DNA of 64,000 nt, taken from assembly GCA_020853025.1 (NCBI GenBank), contig JADYZP010000009.1, positions 86,410-150,409 on the forward strand. The letters are read 5' to 3'. Origin of the DNA: Burkholderiales bacterium. GTDB lineage: Bacteria > Pseudomonadota > Gammaproteobacteria > Burkholderiales > Casimicrobiaceae. The notes beneath the pieces were generated by a model. That model was not told the origin of the DNA and did no database searches. It saw only the letters and a program-made list of their open reading frames with translations. Position 1 is the first letter of the stretch; the number at the start of each line of letters is the position of its first letter. This document shows, piece by piece, positions 27,893 through 36,336 of the stretch. A program made the position numbers and the translations under genes.

Positions 27893-29026
27893 TCAGCGCG
27901 TCGCCACGACGTCGGCCAGCGCCTCGAACATCTCCTGCGCTAGGTTCAGGTCGCCACGATCGCCTACGGGTGTCGCGTTGATCGAAACGGCGATCGTCGC
28001 ACCGGTGCGCGGATCGTAGAACGCAGCGGCTTGCCAGCCGATGCCCGAGCCCGTGTGACCCCACCATCCCGCCAGAATACCGATGCCGAGGCCGTAGCGA
28101 TCGTATTCCGGTCCGTAGGTCACGACGCGCGAGCGGTCGATGCGCTCGCGCTGCAGGTCGGGGCCGATCAACCGGCCGTCGCCGAGCGCCAGCGCCCAGG
28201 TCGCGAGGTCATCGAGCGTGGACTCCATTGCTCCGGCTCCGGCGAGCGCAGTCGGGTTGATCAGCGGCAGCTCCTCGCTGGTACCGGTGACGACGTTGAC
28301 TTCGTACGGTGTCGCATGCGGAAGCGGCAGTGCCACCTGCGAGGGGTACGATGTTCCGGTCAACCGCAGCGGCGCGAAGATCCGCGCGCGCAGCACCTCG
28401 TCCAGCGGCGCTCGGGTGACGCGCTCGATGATCATGCCGAGCAGTACGGTGTTGGTGTTGCTGTACTCGTACCGCGCGCCCGGCGCAAATACCGGCGAAC
28501 CGGGAATGGAGAAGTCGACCAGCTCCTGCTCGGTGAACGCGCGCGCGACATCGGCGCCGAATTCGGCCTGGAATTGCTTGGTGGCACTATAGTCGGCGAT
28601 GCCGCTTTGCATGCCGGCCAGGTCGGCCAGAGTGATCAGCTCGCCGTTCGGAATGCCCGGAATCCAGGTCTCGAGCTTGTCCTCGAGCGACAGCGCCCCC
28701 TCACGCACGAGCTGCAGCAGCACCGTCACCGTGTACGATTTGGTGATGCTGCGGATCGAAAAATGGCTGCGCGGCTCGATCGGCGTCCTGTTGGCAATGT
28801 TGCCCACGCCAAGAGCGACCCGCCATTCGGGATCGCCGGGGTAGCGGACGCTGACCAGCGCGCCGGGCACGTGGTAGCGCTGCATCACGCTTTGCGCGGC
28901 CGCAGCATAGCGCGTCCCGACCGGCGGGAACTCGTCGCTGGTGCAGGATGAGAGCGTGCCCGCCAGTACGAATATCGGAAAGGCGCGCGTCCAGCCGCCC
29001 CGCTTCGTTGTCTTGTCTTCATTCAC
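27893..29026 (-). CDS. Serine hydrolase (beta-lactamase/penicillin-recognizing family), probable lipoprotein
   Basis: SITK (SxxK), YSN (YxN) and WWGHTG; lipobox LSSC; GTG 29026 with GGAG RBS. Confidence 0.88.
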   Translation of the reverse strand: MNEDKTTKRGGWTRAFPIFVLAGTLSSCTSDEFPPVGTRYAAAAQSVMQRYHVPGALVSVRYPGDPEWRVALGVGNIANRTPIEPRSHFSIRSITKSYTVTVLLQLVREGALSLEDKLETWIPGIPNGELITLADLAGMQSGIADYSATKQFQAEFGADVARAFTEQELVDFSIPGSPVFAPGARYEYSNTNTVLLGMIIERVTRAPLDEVLRARIFAPLRLTGTSYPSQVALPLPHATPYEVNVVTGTSEELPLINPTALAGAGAMESTLDDLATWALALGDGRLIGPDLQRERIDRSRVVTYGPEYDRYGLGIGILAGWWGHTGSGIGWQAAAFYDPRTGATIAVSINATPVGDRGDLNLAQEMFEALADVVATR

Positions 29027-29257
29027 GGTCGGACTCCGGATTCGCCTCCCGCAGTTTAAACGCTCCGCACGGCGTCGGGCGCGACCCGGCAATTGGCTCA
29101 TCGGTGCTGATCACGGCGTTCATCGACTGCGGCGGCCTTTTCATCTTCCTCGTGTTCGCGACGCTGTTCCTCGTCAACTGATCCGGCCAGCACGCGGAAT
29201 AATCCATGCCGGCCGATGTTTGCCGCAATATCGTCCCCCAACTTTGAGGAGTTCTCC

Positions 29258-29629
29258 ATGCGTTCCCAGAAATTCGCAGTGCTCATCGCCAGCTTGTTCC
29301 TCACTGCCGCCGCCTTTGCACAATCGGCGCCCGCCACCAAAAGTCCCGCCGGCGTGTGGGTCGATGCCAAGGGTATGACGCTCTACACATTCGACAAGGA
29401 CAGCGTCGGCAAGAGCGCCTGTAATGGCCCGTGCGCGGCCAACTGGCCCCCGCTCATGGCCGGCGCTGATGCCAAGGCTTCGGGCGACTGGACCGTCGTC
29501 ACCCGCGACGACGGCAGCAAGCAATGGGCCTACAAGGGCAAGCTCCTCTACGCATGGATCAAGGACACCAAGGCCGGGGACATGACGGGCGACAACTTCA
29601 ACAACGTCTGGCACGCCGCCAAAGACTAG
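29258..29629 (+). CDS. Secreted repeat protein with Y-X4-D motifs (COG4315)
   Basis: GMTLYTFDKD, CNGPCAANWPPL and QWAYKGK.LY...D; GAGGAG RBS. Confidence 0.9.
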   Translation: MRSQKFAVLIASLFLTAAAFAQSAPATKSPAGVWVDAKGMTLYTFDKDSVGKSACNGPCAANWPPLMAGADAKASGDWTVVTRDDGSKQWAYKGKLLYAWIKDTKAGDMTGDNFNNVWHAAKD

Positions 29630-29704
29630 TCCGCGCACCAGGGCCACGGCGATGGTGTTGTCGGCACAGCGGCGCGCAGCGAACGTGCAGGACCCTCGCA
29701 CGTC

Positions 29705-30253
29705 GTGAGCGCCGCTGCCGCCGACCCGCCGCTGCCGGCGCCCGAACTCCTTGCGGCAATTCCACGCATGCGGCGATATGCGCGCGTGCTCACCGGTGAC
29801 GCGACCCGTGCCGACGATCTCGTCCAGGAGGCGCTGGCGCGGGCCTGGGAGAAGCGGCGACTGTGGGCCGCAGGAACCGATCTTCGCGCCTGGCTTTTCA
29901 CGATCATGCACAACGTTTTCGTCAACCAGCGCGCACTGGCGCGTTACGAGCGCAATCATGTCTCGCTCGATGCCGAAAGCGAAGCTGCGCACGGGTGGCA
30001 AGTCCCGGTTCGCGACATGCAGTACACGCGCGTGGAGCTGTCTGAATTGCTGCAGCATGTGGGCCGGCTGCCGGTGGAGCAACGCGAGGTGCTCGTGCTC
30101 GCGGTGGTCGAGGAGCTGCGTTACGAGGAGATCGCCGCCATGCTCGCCATTCCCATGGGGACGGTGATGTCACGCCTCTCGCGGGCGCGCGAGAAGCTGC
30201 GCGCGGTGTTTGCCGACAACAGCGCGGTCCCGCCGCTCAAGATGGTCAAGTGA
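29705..30253 (+). CDS. ECF sigma factor (ECF26-like)
   Basis: IPRMRRYAR.LTGD...ADDLVQE, AWLFTIMHN and GTVMSRLSRAR. Confidence 0.92.
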   Translation: MSAAAADPPLPAPELLAAIPRMRRYARVLTGDATRADDLVQEALARAWEKRRLWAAGTDLRAWLFTIMHNVFVNQRALARYERNHVSLDAESEAAHGWQVPVRDMQYTRVELSELLQHVGRLPVEQREVLVLAVVEELRYEEIAAMLAIPMGTVMSRLSRAREKLRAVFADNSAVPPLKMVK

Positions 30254-30260
30254 GTTGCCG

Positions 30261-31151
30261 ATGAACCCGCTGCCCGTCAGTGATGCCGATATCCATGCCT
30301 ACGTCGATAGCCAGTTGGCGCCCAAACGCATGCCGGCCGTGGAGGACGCGCTTGCGCGCGATCCCGCACTCGCGGCGCGAGTGACCGAACTACGCCAGCA
30401 GAACGCGTCGTTGCGCGATGCTTTCGATCCGTGGCTCGACGAAGCCTTGCCCGAGCGCCTGGTCGCCGGCGCGGCCGCTCCGCGCGCAAACAGGCAGTGG
30501 ATGCCCTCGTGGGTAGGGATGGCGCTTGCCGCCGCCGCATGCCTCGTGGTCGGCGTGGGCCTCGGTTGGTTCGGTCGTGAAATCAGCCTCGAAAACGACG
30601 GTACGCCGATCACCTTCACGCGGCAGGCGGCGCTCGTGCACGCGCTCTATGCAAGTGACGCCAATCGACCGGTGGAGATCTGGGCGGCGGAAGAGCAACG
30701 GCTCGTGCGCTGGCTGTCGCGCCGCCTGGGCTTCCAGGTGCGCGCGCCAGATCTCAATTCGCTGGGCTTTGCGCTCGTGGGCGGTCGACTCGTGGCCGGC
30801 AACGAAAATCCCACGGCGCTGTTCGTGTACGAGAACGCCGACAAGCGGCGCCTGACGCTCCAGGTGCGCAAGCCGGTGAATGTGGGCCACGAGACCGCCT
30901 TCCGCTACGCGGTCGAAGACGGCGTGGGCGTGTATTACTGGGTCGAGGAAAACGCCACTTACGCGCTGTCCGGCAACCTCGACCGCGGGCAGCTCCTGGC
31001 GATCGGTCGCGTGGTCTACGGGCAACTCGCGACGCTGGAGGCCGCACCCGCGTCCACGGCGCCGGCGGCAACACCGGCTCCCAAGGCACCCGATGCCATG
31101 CCTGTACCTGCGAGGCCCCCAACAACAGCGCCAGTGCAAAAGCTGTCGTAG
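30261..31151 (+). CDS. Transmembrane anti-sigma factor
   Basis: DIHAYVD..L, a single TM segment (MALAAAACLVVGVGLGW) and periplasmic 'PDL..LGF.LVGGRL' typical of ECF26 partners; Pro/Ala tail. Confidence 0.88.
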   Translation: MNPLPVSDADIHAYVDSQLAPKRMPAVEDALARDPALAARVTELRQQNASLRDAFDPWLDEALPERLVAGAAAPRANRQWMPSWVGMALAAAACLVVGVGLGWFGREISLENDGTPITFTRQAALVHALYASDANRPVEIWAAEEQRLVRWLSRRLGFQVRAPDLNSLGFALVGGRLVAGNENPTALFVYENADKRRLTLQVRKPVNVGHETAFRYAVEDGVGVYYWVEENATYALSGNLDRGQLLAIGRVVYGQLATLEAAPASTAPAATPAPKAPDAMPVPARPPTTAPVQKLS

Positions 31152-31346
31152 GACAGCGCTTTCCCGCTACTCGCTCGGATGGGTCGGTATCCTGCCGAGA
31201 AAATACGTGAGCACGCCGATCACGAGCGCAAGCGAGGTGCGCGATAATGGTCCGCCCTGCATCGAGTGCGTTCTTCATAAATGACCCCGTCCCACCCGCC
31301 GATTGCCCCCACCTGTGGTGCGCGCAACGCGCGTGACAAGCGATAG

Positions 31347-31541
31347 GTGGATGCCTATCTCGCCTGGGCCGGTACCACGGGTGCTTCGTTCGTACCGGCG
31401 TGGAGTAACGCCGATATGGCGGTCGTATCGCTGCTGGTGTTCCTCGCATGTTTCACCCTGGCGGCCTTCGCGGACGCGAGTGGCTCGCCGACACGCTCAA
31501 GGCGCCTTCGTTCCCTTGAGCGCCAATGGGAACATAAATGA
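31347..31541 (+). CDS. Possible small membrane protein
   Basis: 64-aa ORF with one hydrophobic segment (MAVVSLLVFLACFTLAAFA); no family recognised. Confidence 0.3.
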   Translation: MDAYLAWAGTTGASFVPAWSNADMAVVSLLVFLACFTLAAFADASGSPTRSRRLRSLERQWEHK

Positions 31542-31544
31542 CTG

Positions 31545-31585
31545 AAAAAAGAGCCGAAACCCACGCCAGATGCGGGTTACGGCTC
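31545..31585 (-). terminator. Intrinsic terminator downstream of the abrB-like gene
   Basis: Minus strand GAGCCGTAACCC...GGGTTTCGGCTC followed by TTTTTT. Confidence 0.8.
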
Positions 31586-31822
31586 GGTCAGCAGGTCAAA
31601 GTTCTGGCTAGTGAGCGTGTCTCGCAACGACGCCTCATCGGAATACCGTGCGTCTGCTCTGAGGTGCCTCAGTACCGCCGCGCTGGCTCCTCTCGCCTTC
31701 TTGAGAATGGTGATTCGGCCGTCGTGCTCCAGAAACTCAACCTGGTCGCCGGGACCGATCCGGAGACGATCGCACAGCTCTTTGGGCAACGTTACTTGCC
31801 GCTTGGGACTCAGGATGGGCAT
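31577..31822 (-). CDS. AbrB/MazE/SpoVT-family DNA-binding protein (orphan antitoxin)
   Basis: LSPKRQVTLPKELCDRLRIGPGDQVEF swapped-hairpin signature. Confidence 0.85.
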   Translation of the reverse strand: MPILSPKRQVTLPKELCDRLRIGPGDQVEFLEHDGRITILKKARGASAAVLRHLRADARYSDEASLRDTLTSQNFDLLTEP

Positions 31823-31866
31823 CGGCGGTCCTTTTCCAGAATGACAAACAGCCAAGATACAAGGCG

Positions 31867-31891
31867 CTTTACTTTTCGTCGATGAGTAAAG
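31867..31891. promoter_or_regulatory. Candidate operator of the AbrB-like gene
   Basis: Inverted repeat CTTTACT-N11-AGTAAAG, 45 nt upstream of the start codon. Confidence 0.5.
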
Positions 31892-31998
31892 ACCGAGGCC
31901 GTCATCCCATCTATATCGCCTGCGCCTTCAGCATGGCCATCAAGCGCACCTGCGAATATCAAGACGCAAAGCCCCCTACAACAAGGGGTTGTCGTCTT

Positions 31999-32047
31999 GC
32001 GCCGGCGGCCACCATGCACGAGCCGCGGGCACGTCTGCGGACGTGGG
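31999..32047 (+). repeat. 49-bp direct repeat, copy 1
   Basis: GCGCCGGCGGCCACCATGCACGAGCCGCGGGCACGTCTGCGGACGTGGG; 44/49 identical to 34042-34090. Confidence 0.9.
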
Positions 32048-32167
32048 TGACCCACGCACCGGGGAAGAACGGCCCCACGGCGACGCCCATCCACTCCGTC
32101 TCCCCGCGGACCCGGTCGCCTCAACCCCTGCAACCTGATCCGCGGTCGCTTGGCGCGGATGAAATTC

Positions 32168-32227
32168 CTATTCGTTGTCGGCTACCTTGAAATCGGAAAA
32201 GTTCTTTGTATCGGTTGCAGCGTTCAT
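32168..32227 (-). pseudogene. ahcY: 5' fragment of adenosylhomocysteinase (first 17 codons, then NE-stop)
   Basis: MNAATDTKNFSDFKVADNE*, with an AAGGGG RBS. Matches the proteobacterial AhcY N-terminus pattern (MNA....DF/YKVAD) and lies directly downstream of an SAH riboswitch. Confidence 0.8.
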
Positions 32228-32314
32228 CGGTCACCCCTTGTCGAGCCACATCCATGCGGGGACGGAGAACATTCGGCAGCGTCTCGTCATCCCGCGCAGA
32301 GGTCGCGGTTCAAC

Positions 32315-32393
32315 GAACGCAGTTGCGAAAGATGAAACCCCGAGCCTGACAGCCCGCGCATCTGGCGGCAGGCTGTTGCAACGCTCCTCGGTG
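32315..32393 (-). ncRNA. SAH riboswitch
   Basis: Minus strand CCGAGGAGCGUUGCAAC[AGCC..GGCU]GUCAGGCUCGG...CAACUGCGUUC: the GAGGAGCG(C/U)UGC and CAGGCUC cores, P1 CCGAG/CUCGG and the pseudoknot partner of GAGCGUUG. Confidence 0.88.
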
Positions 32394-32438
32394 AGTGGCC
32401 GGGTTTTACCTCAATTTGCGGCCGGCACCATTCGACAG

Positions 32439-33990
32439 TTAGCCTGGTGCGCACATGACGACGGCGTCCGGACCGTCGCCTTCGACCAGCCAACCCTTGG
32501 CCACCATCGTGTCCCGCGTGGCCTTGTCGATCATGTAGCGGTGATTGGCGTCGACCCGGTTGCTGAACACGCGATAGACCTCCACGGTGCCGGCCGCGCA
32601 TGTGCCGAGCGTGGGTAGGAACAGCCCATGAAGTGGCTGTCCTCCAGGATGAAGTCGGGATAGGCAGCCATCGTGGAGTCGCATTCCTTGGCGCCCCGAC
32701 CGAAGAAATGCGAGTCGCCGCGCGTGGGGATGCTGTAGATGCGGCAGATGTCCGTCGTGCCGGCTTGTGCCGTAGGGTAGGCCTTGAAGCTCTTGCCGGT
32801 GCGCGTCCATCCCTTGATCGTGGTGCCGGCATCCAGCAACGCGATCTCGGCCGTGATCCACGTGATGAAGTAGTGATCGAGGCTTTGATTGCAATACTCG
32901 ACGACCGTGACCGGCACCGCAGCCTGTGTCGCGGCGACCCGGTTGAGTGCCGCCAATGCATCGAGCTTGCCGTAGCCCCAGCTGGGGTTGGGCGTCCCGC
33001 CCGTGAACGCATCCGATCGCGCCGATTGCTGGAGAATGGACTTCACCTGCGCGGCGTCCAACTGCGGATTTTTCTCGAGCATCAGCGCGATCACGCCGGT
33101 GACCACCGGCGCTGCGCCGCTGACCGCGCCGTGATAGACGTATTTGCCGTTGCCGCCGGGAATGTTCGGCGCCGCCGTGCTCCAGAACGAGTCGGCGCCC
33201 AGTGCGACGATCGTGCCTTCGCCCGGGCTGCTGATGTCGGTGCCGATACGACCGTCGTACGTCGGGCCGATGCTGCTGCCTGGCCACAGATTACCCATCG
33301 TTCCCCCTTCCCACGCCTTGAAGTAATAGTCGGTGAGCGCGATGTTGTTGCGCGCCGTCGCGGCGTCCCAGATGCTCGATCCGGCGACCACATGGCTTGT
33401 AAACTTGTTGTCCACCGATGCGGGCGCAACCGTGCGCGAGGGATTGAGACTGGCGTGGAAACGGCCGTTGACAATGCCCGTGCCGGCGAACTGGATGGTG
33501 TAGGCGTCCGGGCGGCCCGTGGATGTCGATCAGGATCCGGCGCTGACCGTTTTGCGTGAAGAACCCGAGCTGACCGTAGTGGGTGTACGTGAACTCCGCC
33601 GTGGTCTGTGTCGCCTCCGCACCGCTTGCGGGCGCCGGATAGGGGCCGAAGGAGCCCGTTGGCGTGTCCACGGTGACGTCGAAGCGATCGGCCCCGGCGT
33701 ACCCAGAGGTCGAGATGCAGCGTCGTGGTCGGATTGGCGGTGCCTTTCTGCAACTTGAGGCTCAACGGTGTTCCGGAGGTCACCACGCCGCTGGCATGGT
33801 TGTCCGCACCGCCGTCGTCCCCATTGCCCGTGACGATCACCAGACCCGGCTTCCCGGCCCCAACGGTGGAATCGATCAGCTTGGCCAGCGTGCTCGTGCC
33901 GTCAGTTGAGTCGCCGATCGATCCGAAATTCCACAGCACGACTGCGGGCATATGCAGCCGCGCCGCGGTGTCCTTCACGAACTGAGTTCG
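32439..33990 (-). pseudogene. Subtilase (S8) pseudogene, 5'-truncated, with a C-terminal 'VEYxN...HYF' secreted-protein repeat domain
   Basis: Reconstructed across three frames with shifts at about 33702 (+1), 33506 (+1) and 32625 (-1). Retains the AVSGAAPVVTGVIAL catalytic-Ser helix and WGYGKLDA; in-frame stop at about 34000; the Asp/His half is missing. Confidence 0.82.
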
Positions 33991-34041
33991 ACCAGCGCCT
34001 CACCCGGTAACCGCCATCCACGTGCGACACCGGATGGGCTC

Positions 34042-34090
34042 GCGCCGGCGGCCACCATGCGCGAGTCGCGGGCACATCGGCGCACGTGGG
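34042..34090 (+). repeat. 49-bp direct repeat, copy 2
   Basis: GCGCCGGCGGCCACCATGCGCGAGTCGCGGGCACATCGGCGCACGTGGG. Confidence 0.9.
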
Positions 34091-34095
34091 CGTTG

Positions 34096-34149
34096 TTGCA
34101 GGCAGCGCCCCGTTTTGCTACAATCAGCTAGTCGATAAGCTAGCTGATT
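34096..34149 (+). promoter_or_regulatory. TA operon promoter with overlapping operator
   Basis: TTGCAG-N17-TACAAT; perfect 10-bp inverted repeat AATCAGCTAG-N8-CTAGCTGATT (34122-34149) overlapping the -10 and +1. Confidence 0.75.
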
Positions 34150-34157
34150 GGAGTGCG

Positions 34158-34400
34158 ATGAAAGAGATCGGAGCCTTCGAGGCCAAGAATCGGTTCGGCA
34201 CGCTACTCAACTGGGTGGAACAGGGGGAGCAGATCGTGATTACGCGCCGCGGTAAGGTGGTGGCACGACTGGTTCCCAACGATCTCCGGGCCGACCGCGA
34301 GGCCGCCACCCACGCCGCAGGGCGCATCCAGGCGCGGCGGGCTGGAGTGCGGCTTTTCGGCCTGAAGATCAAGGATCTCGTTGGCGAAGGGCGCCGTTGA
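34158..34400 (+). CDS. Phd/YefM-family antitoxin
   Basis: MKEIGAFEAKNRFGTLL..VEQGEQIVITRRGKVVARLVP. Confidence 0.92.
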   Translation: MKEIGAFEAKNRFGTLLNWVEQGEQIVITRRGKVVARLVPNDLRADREAATHAAGRIQARRAGVRLFGLKIKDLVGEGRR

Positions 34401-34810
34401 GCCTGGTCATCGACAGTTCGATCGCGCTGGCGTGGCTGTTCGAGGACGAGCAGAGTGAAGCGACCGAAGCGCTCTTGCGCCGGGTCGTCGAGCAGGGTGC
34501 GATTGTGCCGTCGTTGTGGCGGCTCGAGGTTGCCAACGCCCTGCAGATGGCGCTGCGCCGCAAGCGGATCGATGCATCGTTTCGCGATGCCTCCTTGCAA
34601 GACTTCCTGGCGCTGCCGATTATCGTGGACGCGGACACGGACGCGCACGCGTTCGGTACCACACTGAGTCTTGCGCAGGCGTGCGGTCTCACTCTCTACG
34701 ACGCGGCGTATCTTGAGCTCGCGCAACGCTTGCGACTCCCGTTGGCAACGCTCGATGGCGAGCTCCGCGCGGCCTGCCGGAGCATGAAGGTGGACATCCT
34801 GCCGGATTGA
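34397..34810 (+). CDS. vapC: VapC/PIN-domain toxin
   Basis: LVIDSS..LAW...DE, LW..EV.N, YDA.YL.LA and LATLD; 4-nt overlap with the antitoxin. Confidence 0.92.
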   Translation: MSLVIDSSIALAWLFEDEQSEATEALLRRVVEQGAIVPSLWRLEVANALQMALRRKRIDASFRDASLQDFLALPIIVDADTDAHAFGTTLSLAQACGLTLYDAAYLELAQRLRLPLATLDGELRAACRSMKVDILPD

Positions 34811-34977
34811 TCTTCGGCCGAATCACGCAAAGTGTTGGCGACAGGCGAATGACCTACCGCGCCGGCAGCGCCTTCCACCCCGCCCCGGGATTGCCGACGG
34901 CCGTGCGACATGCGTTGATACAGGTTCGGCCCTGCCCGGAACAATCCCACATCACTAGGCCGTTTCCCGTGGCCTGC

Positions 34978-36336
34978 CTAACAGTCGCGCAGCGCGGCCA
35001 ACGCCTGGTCGACGCGCTCGACGGTGATCACCCTGACGCCGTCCAGGCCGTGCCGCGGCCGGTTCGCAGCCGGCAGCAGCACCGTCTCGAAGCCGAGTTT
35101 CGCGGCTTCGCGCAGGCGTTCCTGGCCGCGCTGGACCGGGCGGATTTCCCCTGCCAGCCCAACTTCACCAAACACAATAGATTTAGCAGGCAATGGCCTG
35201 TTTTTCAACGATGATTCTATCGCCAGCACTACGGCCAGATCGACGGCCGGCTCCTGGATACGCACACCCCCGACCGCGTTGACGAAGACGTCGTAACCGC
35301 CAGTGTCGACCCCGCCGTGCCGGTGCAGCACCGCGAGCAGCAGCGCCAGCCGCTGCGCGTCGAGCCCGACCGCCAGGCGCCGCGGCATCCCGCCCTGCAC
35401 CGGGTCGACCAGCGCCTGGATTTCGACCAGCAGCGGCCGGGATCCCTCGAGGGTCGCCACCACCGCCGAACCCGACACCGGATCGGCATGCTGCGCCAGG
35501 AACAGCGCCGACGGGTTGGAGACGCCGCGCAGGCCCCGCTCGGTCATCGCGAAGACGCCCAGCTCGTTGGCCGCGCCGAAGCGGTTCTTGATCGCGCGCA
35601 CCAGCCGGAAGGAGGAATGCGGGTCGCCCTCGAAATAGAGCACGGTGTCGACGATGTGCTCGAGCACGCGCGGACCGGCGATGGCGCCCTCCTTCGTCAC
35701 GTGCCCGACGAGCACGACGATCACGCCCTGCTGCTTGGCCAGGCGCGTCAACTGCGCCGCGCACTCGCGAACCTGCGCGACGCTGCCCGGCGCCGACTGC
35801 AGCGCCTCGGTGTACACGGTCTGGATCGAGTCGACGATGACGATTTCGGGCCGGGCGGCGCCGATCGCGTTCACGATGGCCTCCAACTGCACTTCCGCCA
35901 GCAGCTCGACCGGTGCGTTGACCAGCCCCAGCCGGTGTGCGCGCAGCGCGATCTGCTCGACCGATTCCTCGCCGGTCACGTAGAGTGTCCGGTGCGCCGC
36001 GCCGAGCGCTGCGGTCGCCTGCAGCAGCAGCGTCGACTTGCCGATCCCCGGATCGCCGCCGATAAGCACGACACCGCCGGGCACCAGTCCGCCGCCCAGC
36101 ACGCGGTCGAATTCCTCGATCCCGGTGGCGATCCGCGTGTTCTCCTGCGTCTTGACCGCCGACAGCGAGGTCACCGCGGCCCGGGTGCCGCTGACCGACT
36201 CGAAGCGCACGGGGTTGGGCGTGGCGATCACCTCGACCAGCGTGTTCCACGCACCGCAGCCAGTGCACTGGCCCTGCCATTTGGGCGCGCTGGCGCCGCA
36301 TTCGGTGCAGCTGTAGATGGTCCTGGTCTTCGCCAC
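34978..36336 (-). CDS. radA: DNA repair protein RadA/Sms
   Basis: C4 zinc finger, GDPGIGKS, KNRFG motif and Lon-like C-terminus. Confidence 0.97.
   Translation of the reverse strand: MAKTRTIYSCTECGASAPKWQGQCTGCGAWNTLVEVIATPNPVRFESVSGTRAAVTSLSAVKTQENTRIATGIEEFDRVLGGGLVPGGVVLIGGDPGIGKSTLLLQATAALGAAHRTLYVTGEESVEQIALRAHRLGLVNAPVELLAEVQLEAIVNAIGAARPEIVIVDSIQTVYTEALQSAPGSVAQVRECAAQLTRLAKQQGVIVVLVGHVTKEGAIAGPRVLEHIVDTVLYFEGDPHSSFRLVRAIKNRFGAANELGVFAMTERGLRGVSNPSALFLAQHADPVSGSAVVATLEGSRPLLVEIQALVDPVQGGMPRRLAVGLDAQRLALLLAVLHRHGGVDTGGYDVFVNAVGGVRIQEPAVDLAVVLAIESSLKNRPLPAKSIVFGEVGLAGEIRPVQRGQERLREAAKLGFETVLLPAANRPRHGLDGVRVITVERVDQALAALRDC

Follow-up and report, generated by a model that had tools for sequence, protein, structure and literature searches.

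The SAH riboswitch carried on the minus strand of the window (the whole 64,000-nt stretch of DNA analysed here, C9:86410-150409) is probably what remains of an ahcY 5' end that was acquired horizontally, was cut off at the terminus of an IS91/ISCR-family element and is now decaying. The window belongs to a MAG of 71 contigs and 3.65 Mb (94% complete, 2% estimated contamination). A cmscan search placed a match to RF01057 (SAH) at 32308-32395 (-), covering model positions 1-78 of 78 with 54.4 bits against a gathering threshold of 37. This is the sole Rfam match in the whole window, and a permissive Rfam scan of 31300-34300 returned nothing beyond it. The original prediction had proposed, from the letters of the sequence, an SAH aptamer on the minus strand with a TAAAAC box, a leader, a ribosome-binding site and a short ORF encoding an AhcY N-terminus. 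All of these are present (Table 1), although the ORF coordinates it implied were one base off, the actual start codon beginning at 32227.

The short ORF comprises 17 ahcY codons (32227-32177) followed by AAC GAA TAG, and these three final triplets derive from the junction and the IS end. AhcY N-termini of congeners begin with MNAATETKNFSDFKVAD or MNAATDTKNFADFKVAD and continue with L(S/A)LA(A/D)WGRKE, and the stub peptide matches them at 16 of 17 residues. The aptamer is an SAH riboswitch and the stub is the N-terminus of AhcY. Alignments with the leaders of the genus show that the expression platform contains a conserved hairpin (CCGCGA...CGCGG-GAUGACGAG), a pre-SD box and the SD itself. The pre-SD box reads GUGGCUCGAC in the stub versus GUCGCUCGAC in functional copies, the change lying at 32247. 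Minimum free energy folding of the leader gave z = 0.21, which is uninformative, the method being one without pseudoknots.

Table 1. Features of the riboswitch locus and its surroundings (window positions)
Feature	Position	Strand	Basis or remark
AbrB/MazE-like gene, 81 aa	31577..31822	(-)	PF04014 2e-09, TIGR01439 1.2e-09
52-nt palindromic piece CAAGACG...CCCCT-tgttgt-AGGGG...CGTCTTG	31956..32007		87% match to C20:65725-65776
Putative transposase-distal (oriIS-side) terminal remnant of an IS91/ISCR-family rolling-circle element	31993..32173	(+)	homologous copies elsewhere; transposase gene missing
Stub ORF MNAATDTKNFSDFKVAD-NE*	32227-32168 (ATG 32227-32225)	(-)	read from the sequence
SD / ribosome-binding site AAGGGG	32239-32234	(-)	most functional copies have AAGGAG
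Leader / expression platform, 80 nt	32228..32307	(-)	alignments with leaders of the genus
SAH riboswitch aptamer, complete	32308..32395	(-)	RF01057, all helices present
-10-like TAAAAC	32408-32403	(-)	read from the sequence
Upstream intergenic piece of the apparently foreign ahcY locus, with the -10-like box	32396..32432	(-)	homology to the leaders of G086, G062 and G047 begins at about 32432
S8 subtilase-DUF5648 pseudogene	about 32439..33978	(-)	Pfam PF00082, PF18885
Inner 52-nt piece of the IS91-like terminal region, second remnant	34039..34090	(+)	88% identity over 52 nt
Phd/YefM-type antitoxin and PIN-domain toxin pair (vapBC-like), between the debris and radA	34158..34810	(+)	PF02604, TIGR01552, PF01850

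The assembly contains two SAH aptamers, namely the window copy and one at C63:60039-60128 (46.3 bits). Directly behind the latter lies the sole AdoHcyase gene of the assembly (C63:58533-59921, 475 aa), which agrees with the predicted lack of another ahcY in the window. This resident ahcY is preceded by a conserved gene for a HEXXH-motif protein and followed by metF, and no island lies beside it. The HEXXH-protein gene is also found upstream of ahcY in congeners, indicating that the C63 locus is the native one. The RF01057 copy in the window does not stand in the leader of an intact ahcY, metF or metH gene and has only the 17 ahcY codons behind it. The reverse arrangement, with the stub as the native remnant and the C63 copy as the newcomer, was rejected, as the C63 locus keeps both the genus-wide upstream neighbour and metF, and the stub is flanked by debris.

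The ahcY homology of the stub locus is confined to 32432-32177 or 32427-32177 depending on the partner (a fragment of 251-256 nt) and stops exactly after codon 17, at ...GTAGCCGAC (32177). Within these limits, the leaders of G086, G062, G047 and one further MAG share 88-90% identity with the fragment, the first three forming a clade of congeners that are uncultured soil Casimicrobiaceae MAGs. Identity falls to 82-83% with the G080 leader and 78-81% with the G024 leader, and to 76-78% in local BLAST pieces (about 65-70% overall) with the resident leader, which itself reaches 69% with its own best match. Coding housekeeping DNA of this genome (radA-hldE-ugd) is 76-81% identical to that of every congener compared. 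A mostly non-coding fragment thus resembles one clade much more closely than the conserved genes of this genome resemble those of any congener, which argues for horizontal acquisition from that clade, and the alignments give the fragment a foreign affinity with G086, G062 and G047. A duplication of the resident ahcY leader was rejected on the same figures, since the two are about 65-77% identical versus 88-90% for another clade. Searches for the exact junction in metagenome contigs and for the exact stub peptide in genome contigs returned no matches, and a relaxed peptide pattern recovered only intact ahcY genes of related MAGs.

At the other side of the breakpoint, the outer terminus of the IS remnant lies at 32173, three bases past the last ahcY base. 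The window copy ends with ...GCGGATGAAATTCCTATTC and contains a palindrome, ATCCGCG-N9-CGCGGAT (7-bp arms), 13 nt from its terminus. Subterminal palindromes of this kind are known for IS91 and IS801 (PMC13181058). Because the window carries no transposase gene, the IS assignment rests on homologous copies elsewhere. Repeat copies in G080 (three), G011 and G042 share 69-85% identity and a common outer terminus, at which their flanks diverge, and seven IS-end copies end with ...TGAA(A/C)TTCC(T/C)AT(C/T)C and then diverge immediately. On two contigs of G080 (C180 and C102), the repeat lies behind a C-terminal transposase fragment ending with ...YEFDQRVAW*, and the G080 transposase fragment matches the NCBIfam model ISCR_clade_Ia (NF052416; E 8.5e-10). 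The presence of one terminus in independent copies, two of them behind an IS91/ISCR transposase C-terminus, indicates that the stub was cut at an IS91-family terminus. The exact breakpoints are established, and homology identifies the abutting sequence as IS91-family DNA.

In the genome itself, the IS91-like genes on C63 and C14 are followed, after the stop codon, by about 190 nt ending with ...GCGTGATTGAAATGCCTATCC, beyond which the loci diverge, and the IS91-like copies of this genome end with ...GATTGAAATGCCTATCC. The element is probably multicopy in this genome and probably breaks the assembly. The oriIS of IS91/ISCR elements lies downstream of the transposase gene, forms the element boundary and adjoins variable DNA, and transposition proceeds by rolling circle with no target duplication, one-ended events mobilising adjacent DNA (PMC6218425, PMC13181058). 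The tetranucleotide beside oriIS is GTTG in the window and GTAG, CGTC, CTCA, CCTT, TTCA or TCCG in the other copies, with no clear consensus, and the window flank corresponds to neither of the canonical IS91 targets, CTTG and GTTC (PMC13181058). Several other identities for the 160-180-nt repeat were rejected. It is too rare for a high-copy MITE, occurring in 4 of 41 genomes including this one, plus three more G080 copies. It is not a known RNA either, having no Rfam match even at E of 1 or less. Nor do the repeats resemble the boundaries of integron cassettes, as they are not attC-like palindromes and the junction shows no core or inverse-core motifs. In addition, C-terminal fragments of IS91/ISCR transposases lie at or near contig edges (C63:1-247, C19:1-687, C39:~230021-230164 and C14:55202-55730). 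In one congener, a stretch of 44 nt (G013:C1:763802-763846) some 8 kb upstream of the ahcY leader matches the IS-end region at 84%, which may be due to chance.

The DNA around the fragment consists of further remnants. In G024, radA is followed after 130 nt by a beta-lactamase-family gene whose counterpart in the window lies at 27893-29101, so this genome carries about 5.9 kb of extra DNA, made up of mobile-element debris and toxin-antitoxin genes. Other congeners have different genes after radA. The radA-downstream region (window 29101-34978) is hypervariable in the genus, and a Lipoprotein_15/ECF sigma/anti-sigma operon located here at 29216-31151 lies elsewhere in relatives. The second IS-end fragment is in direct orientation with 31996-32047, and the pair brackets 2.1 kb containing the subtilase remnant, the riboswitch and the stub. 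The S8 subtilase pseudogene lacks the first 275 residues and shows at least two frame changes relative to the intact 814-aa homologue of G086, which tblastn aligns to it in three separate frames (q276-362, q462-752 and q754-813). About 7 nt separate the stop codon of the pseudogene (32441-32439) from the beginning of the ahcY-leader fragment. The idea that both arrived in the same transferred block was not retained, as the donor clade gave only paralogue-level matches (about 72%), leaving the link unsupported. The DUF5648 module occurs in many copies in the congeners searched.

On the other side of the stub, the palindromic piece finds its match inside a tRNA-Arg-linked integrative island with an AlpA-like gene and an integrase. 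The edge of this island (C20:63512-65776) holds tRNA-Arg(ACG), a 392-aa tyrosine integrase and the AlpA-like gene. A hairpin resembling an intrinsic terminator accompanies the AbrB/MazE-like gene, for which no neighbouring toxin partner was detected in the window. Its 3' end together with the terminator (31526-31604) is duplicated at C59:385-463 with 94% identity. This duplicate, close to where contig C59 begins, is surrounded by debris of IS3/IS4-type transposases.

Across the genus, 76 of 81 genomes have an SAH aptamer match, and 73 of these 76 have exactly one. The two doubles other than the present genome (G017 and G079) are full-length ahcY genes and probably come from mixed bins. No orphan, split or duplicated ahcY 5' end was detected in any of the 80 congeners (0/80), and the orphan stub thus appears to be unique to this genome within the genus. 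One of the two ahcY loci of G079, a 50%-complete MAG, is broken into five pieces in different frames (L066, G079:C20:164000-171000). Either a true pseudogene or indel errors of long-read sequencing could explain this break-up, and the presence of two loci suggests that the bin is mixed.

To assess constraint, the stub was aligned with 38 functional leaders of the genus, in which 70 sites are at least 95% conserved. The stub is changed at four of these 70 sites, compared with 0-2 in each functional leader and none in 25 of the 38. The first change (32403) is T-to-C at the last position of the -10 box, which is T in all 38 functional leaders. The second (32349) is C-to-U in the CCAGGC loop of the aptamer, and the third (32317) is C-to-U in the pseudoknot strand (GCGCUC to GCGUUC), turning a G-C pair into G.U; both sites are invariant in the 38 congeneric aptamers. 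The fourth altered site is the position in the pre-SD box (32247). In addition, the stub aptamer scores 7-11 bits below those of its three closest relatives (61.9-65.6 bits). That otherwise invariant sites of the promoter, aptamer and pre-SD box are changed more often here than in functional copies speaks against a maintained function. However, the aptamer is complete and well above threshold, and both of its changes are mild C-to-U transitions, one of which keeps a G.U pair, so the RNA may still function. Although the argument is one of small numbers (four changes versus 0-2), all indications run in the same direction and point to relaxed constraint on the stub.

The leaders of the 38 congeners (L003-L065) also suggest a mode of action for the module. 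The 3' tail of the aptamer, GCGCUCGUUGA, is complementary to the SD region CAAGGAGUGAC (CAACGGGGUGAGCG in some), and the conserved hairpin and the GAUGACGAG box lie between the tail and the SD. The predicted tail-to-SD duplex in functional leaders averages -10.5 kcal/mol, versus -8.5 kcal/mol for shuffled SD windows. This stronger complementarity suggests that the expression platform of the genus is a translational ON switch; the platform has no terminator. The corresponding duplex of the stub, at -5.9 kcal/mol, is the weakest of the 39.

Collectively, these features are best accounted for by a second ahcY locus, which would have been transferred horizontally from the related Casimicrobiaceae clade that contains G086, G062 and G047. 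An IS91-like element probably either inserted into this foreign ahcY copy or recombined with it, and later deletions may have taken the transposase and the rest of ahcY, leaving about 250 nt of the ahcY locus and the terminal 180 nt or so of the IS. The surviving 250 nt would run from the promoter region through the complete aptamer and the translational expression platform to the end of codon 17. The order of these events is a reconstruction, and the insertion may have taken place in the donor or in the present genome. Should the weakened promoter remain active, the transcript could fold and bind SAH, permitting translation of a 19-aa nonsense peptide. Under the putative SD-sequestering mechanism, SAH binding would free the SD from the 3' tail of the aptamer. 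Most likely, the fragment has no selected present function and is slowly decaying.

An alternative scenario, also raised in the original prediction, is that the promoter-riboswitch module has been exapted and gives SAH-responsive transcription or read-through into the AbrB/MazE-like gene (31822-31577), which, if true, would make a small DNA-binding regulator, or an antitoxin, responsive to cellular methylation state. The gene lies on the same strand as the stub with no gene between them and is the only one that read-through could reach. The aptamer is intact, a promoter scan of 31400-32600 found no sigma-70-like promoter for the abrB-like gene, and a scan of the minus strand from the stub to this gene found no consensus terminator. 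However, the 345-nt spacer consists of the IS-end remnant and a GC-rich palindromic hairpin, the -10 box lacks its invariant T, and the abrB-like gene is itself tied to IS debris. The platform of the genus also appears to be translational, acting on the SD of the stub itself, and thus would not gate downstream transcription. With the arrangement found in 0/80 congeners, we consider this exaptation unlikely.

A further scenario makes the aptamer and stub transcript a stand-alone SAH-binding RNA, acting as a sensor or sponge for SAH, as a small RNA or through its peptide. Its complete, high-scoring aptamer (54.4 bits) and the promoter-like region kept in the fragment would suit such a role. However, the unit is not conserved beyond this one genome, invariant aptamer sites are altered, and the fragment boundaries are recombination junctions rather than those of a transcript-like unit, making a free-standing RNA very improbable. 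More broadly, it is quite unlikely that a riboswitch module moved between species beside an IS91/ISCR-type element and is now reused, whether to control the abrB-like gene or as a free SAH-sensing RNA.

An assembly or binning artefact, in which a 250-nt fragment of a co-occurring related species was spliced into the contig, is likewise highly unlikely. The source is a MAG of 71 contigs with 2% estimated contamination, the fragment looks like sequence of a different clade within the genus, and repeats flank it, all of which would fit a mis-join. However, the fragment lies mid-way in a 240-kb contig with unique sequence on both flanks. The flanking repeats, only 88% identical over 52 nt, are too diverged to cause a mis-join. 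Moreover, two crossovers within 260 nt would be required for a chimera, which would not give a precise join to an IS terminus, and no sampled genome is more than 90% identical to the fragment.

The least probable scenario is the first one of the original prediction, in which an integrative element targeting the ahcY 5' end left behind a displaced or replacement end; the present data largely refute it. A promoter, riboswitch and first codons are what such an element must supply, the fragment is apparently foreign, and mobile-element debris surrounds it. However, the stub on C9 adjoins no ahcY body, the gene being on C63, where the resident leader is only about 65-77% identical to the stub, depending on the alignment, shows no att-like repeat of the breakpoint and retains the upstream synteny that is the norm of the genus. 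Where att cores might have been expected, the junction partner is an IS91-family terminus rather than an island end, and neither tRNA genes, tRNA fragments nor att-like duplications were found near the stub. The nearest tyrosine recombinase on the contig, at C9:226375, lies about 108 kb away (PF00589 has eight matches in the genome), and islands beside split ahcY genes, which this scenario would predict in relatives, have no counterpart, as 0/80 congeners carry a split or duplicated ahcY 5' end. Given the lack of recurrence in congeners, the distant recombinase and the absence of a nearby tRNA, an ahcY-targeting element is not supported, and the locus is not a new integration system. What stands of the original prediction is an ahcY 5' end that carries a whole riboswitch and was stranded by mobile DNA.

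The decaying-relic reading implies that a textbook riboswitch match well above threshold can be a dead relic, its aptamer still recognisable after the loss of its own gene. Regulon reconstructions that count Rfam matches will therefore mis-assign targets in such cases, for example the abrB-like gene here. It also suggests that a regulatory RNA module can cross species boundaries within mobile-element mosaics. If the fragment were transcribed and SAH-responsive, it would represent a rare natural case of riboswitch re-wiring by a mobile cassette.

Every proteobacterial genome studied has the SAH riboswitch upstream of ahcY, and each has one or two operons under its control (PMC4239095). Like the RF01057 riboswitches of ahcY-metF operons in beta- and gamma-proteobacteria, the window copy has a full-length aptamer with the conserved core and pseudoknot strand, save for the two C-to-U changes described above. 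Its leader architecture matches that of the genus's 38 functional ahcY leaders, and it shares their first 17 codons. Unlike the usual SAH riboswitch, it lacks the ahcY body, its 17 codons ending in a stop supplied by foreign DNA, and it is a second, apparently xenologous copy where one per genome is the rule, with four changes at sites conserved in the genus.

Integrative elements such as dusA-associated islands and SXT/R391 in prfC insert into the 5' ends of genes and supply a replacement 5' end. The window resembles these islands in presenting a foreign promoter and the first codons of a gene away from the gene body, but differs in lacking an integrase, att repeats and adjacency to the target, and in the native 5' end of the resident gene.

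A further parallel is with IS91/ISCR elements. Unlike intact members, the window holds remnants only, with no transposase; its flank is GTTG instead of the CTTG or GTTC of IS91, and its host is an uncultured soil betaproteobacterium. Unlike in IS91/ISCR arrays, the neighbour is a dead, convergent gene fragment and not a resistance gene driven by outward promoters. As in IS91/ISCR elements, however, a region of about 180 nt, found downstream of a transposase gene in homologues, has a sharp terminus and a subterminal palindrome with no inverted-repeat partner, and a foreign gene fragment begins right at that terminus. As in ISCR arrays, the same end recurs 2 kb away as another fragment in direct orientation. 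IS91/ISCR-family elements of an uncultured soil betaproteobacterium thus appear to abut gene fragments that are captured or foreign, a situation known from clinical resistance arrays.
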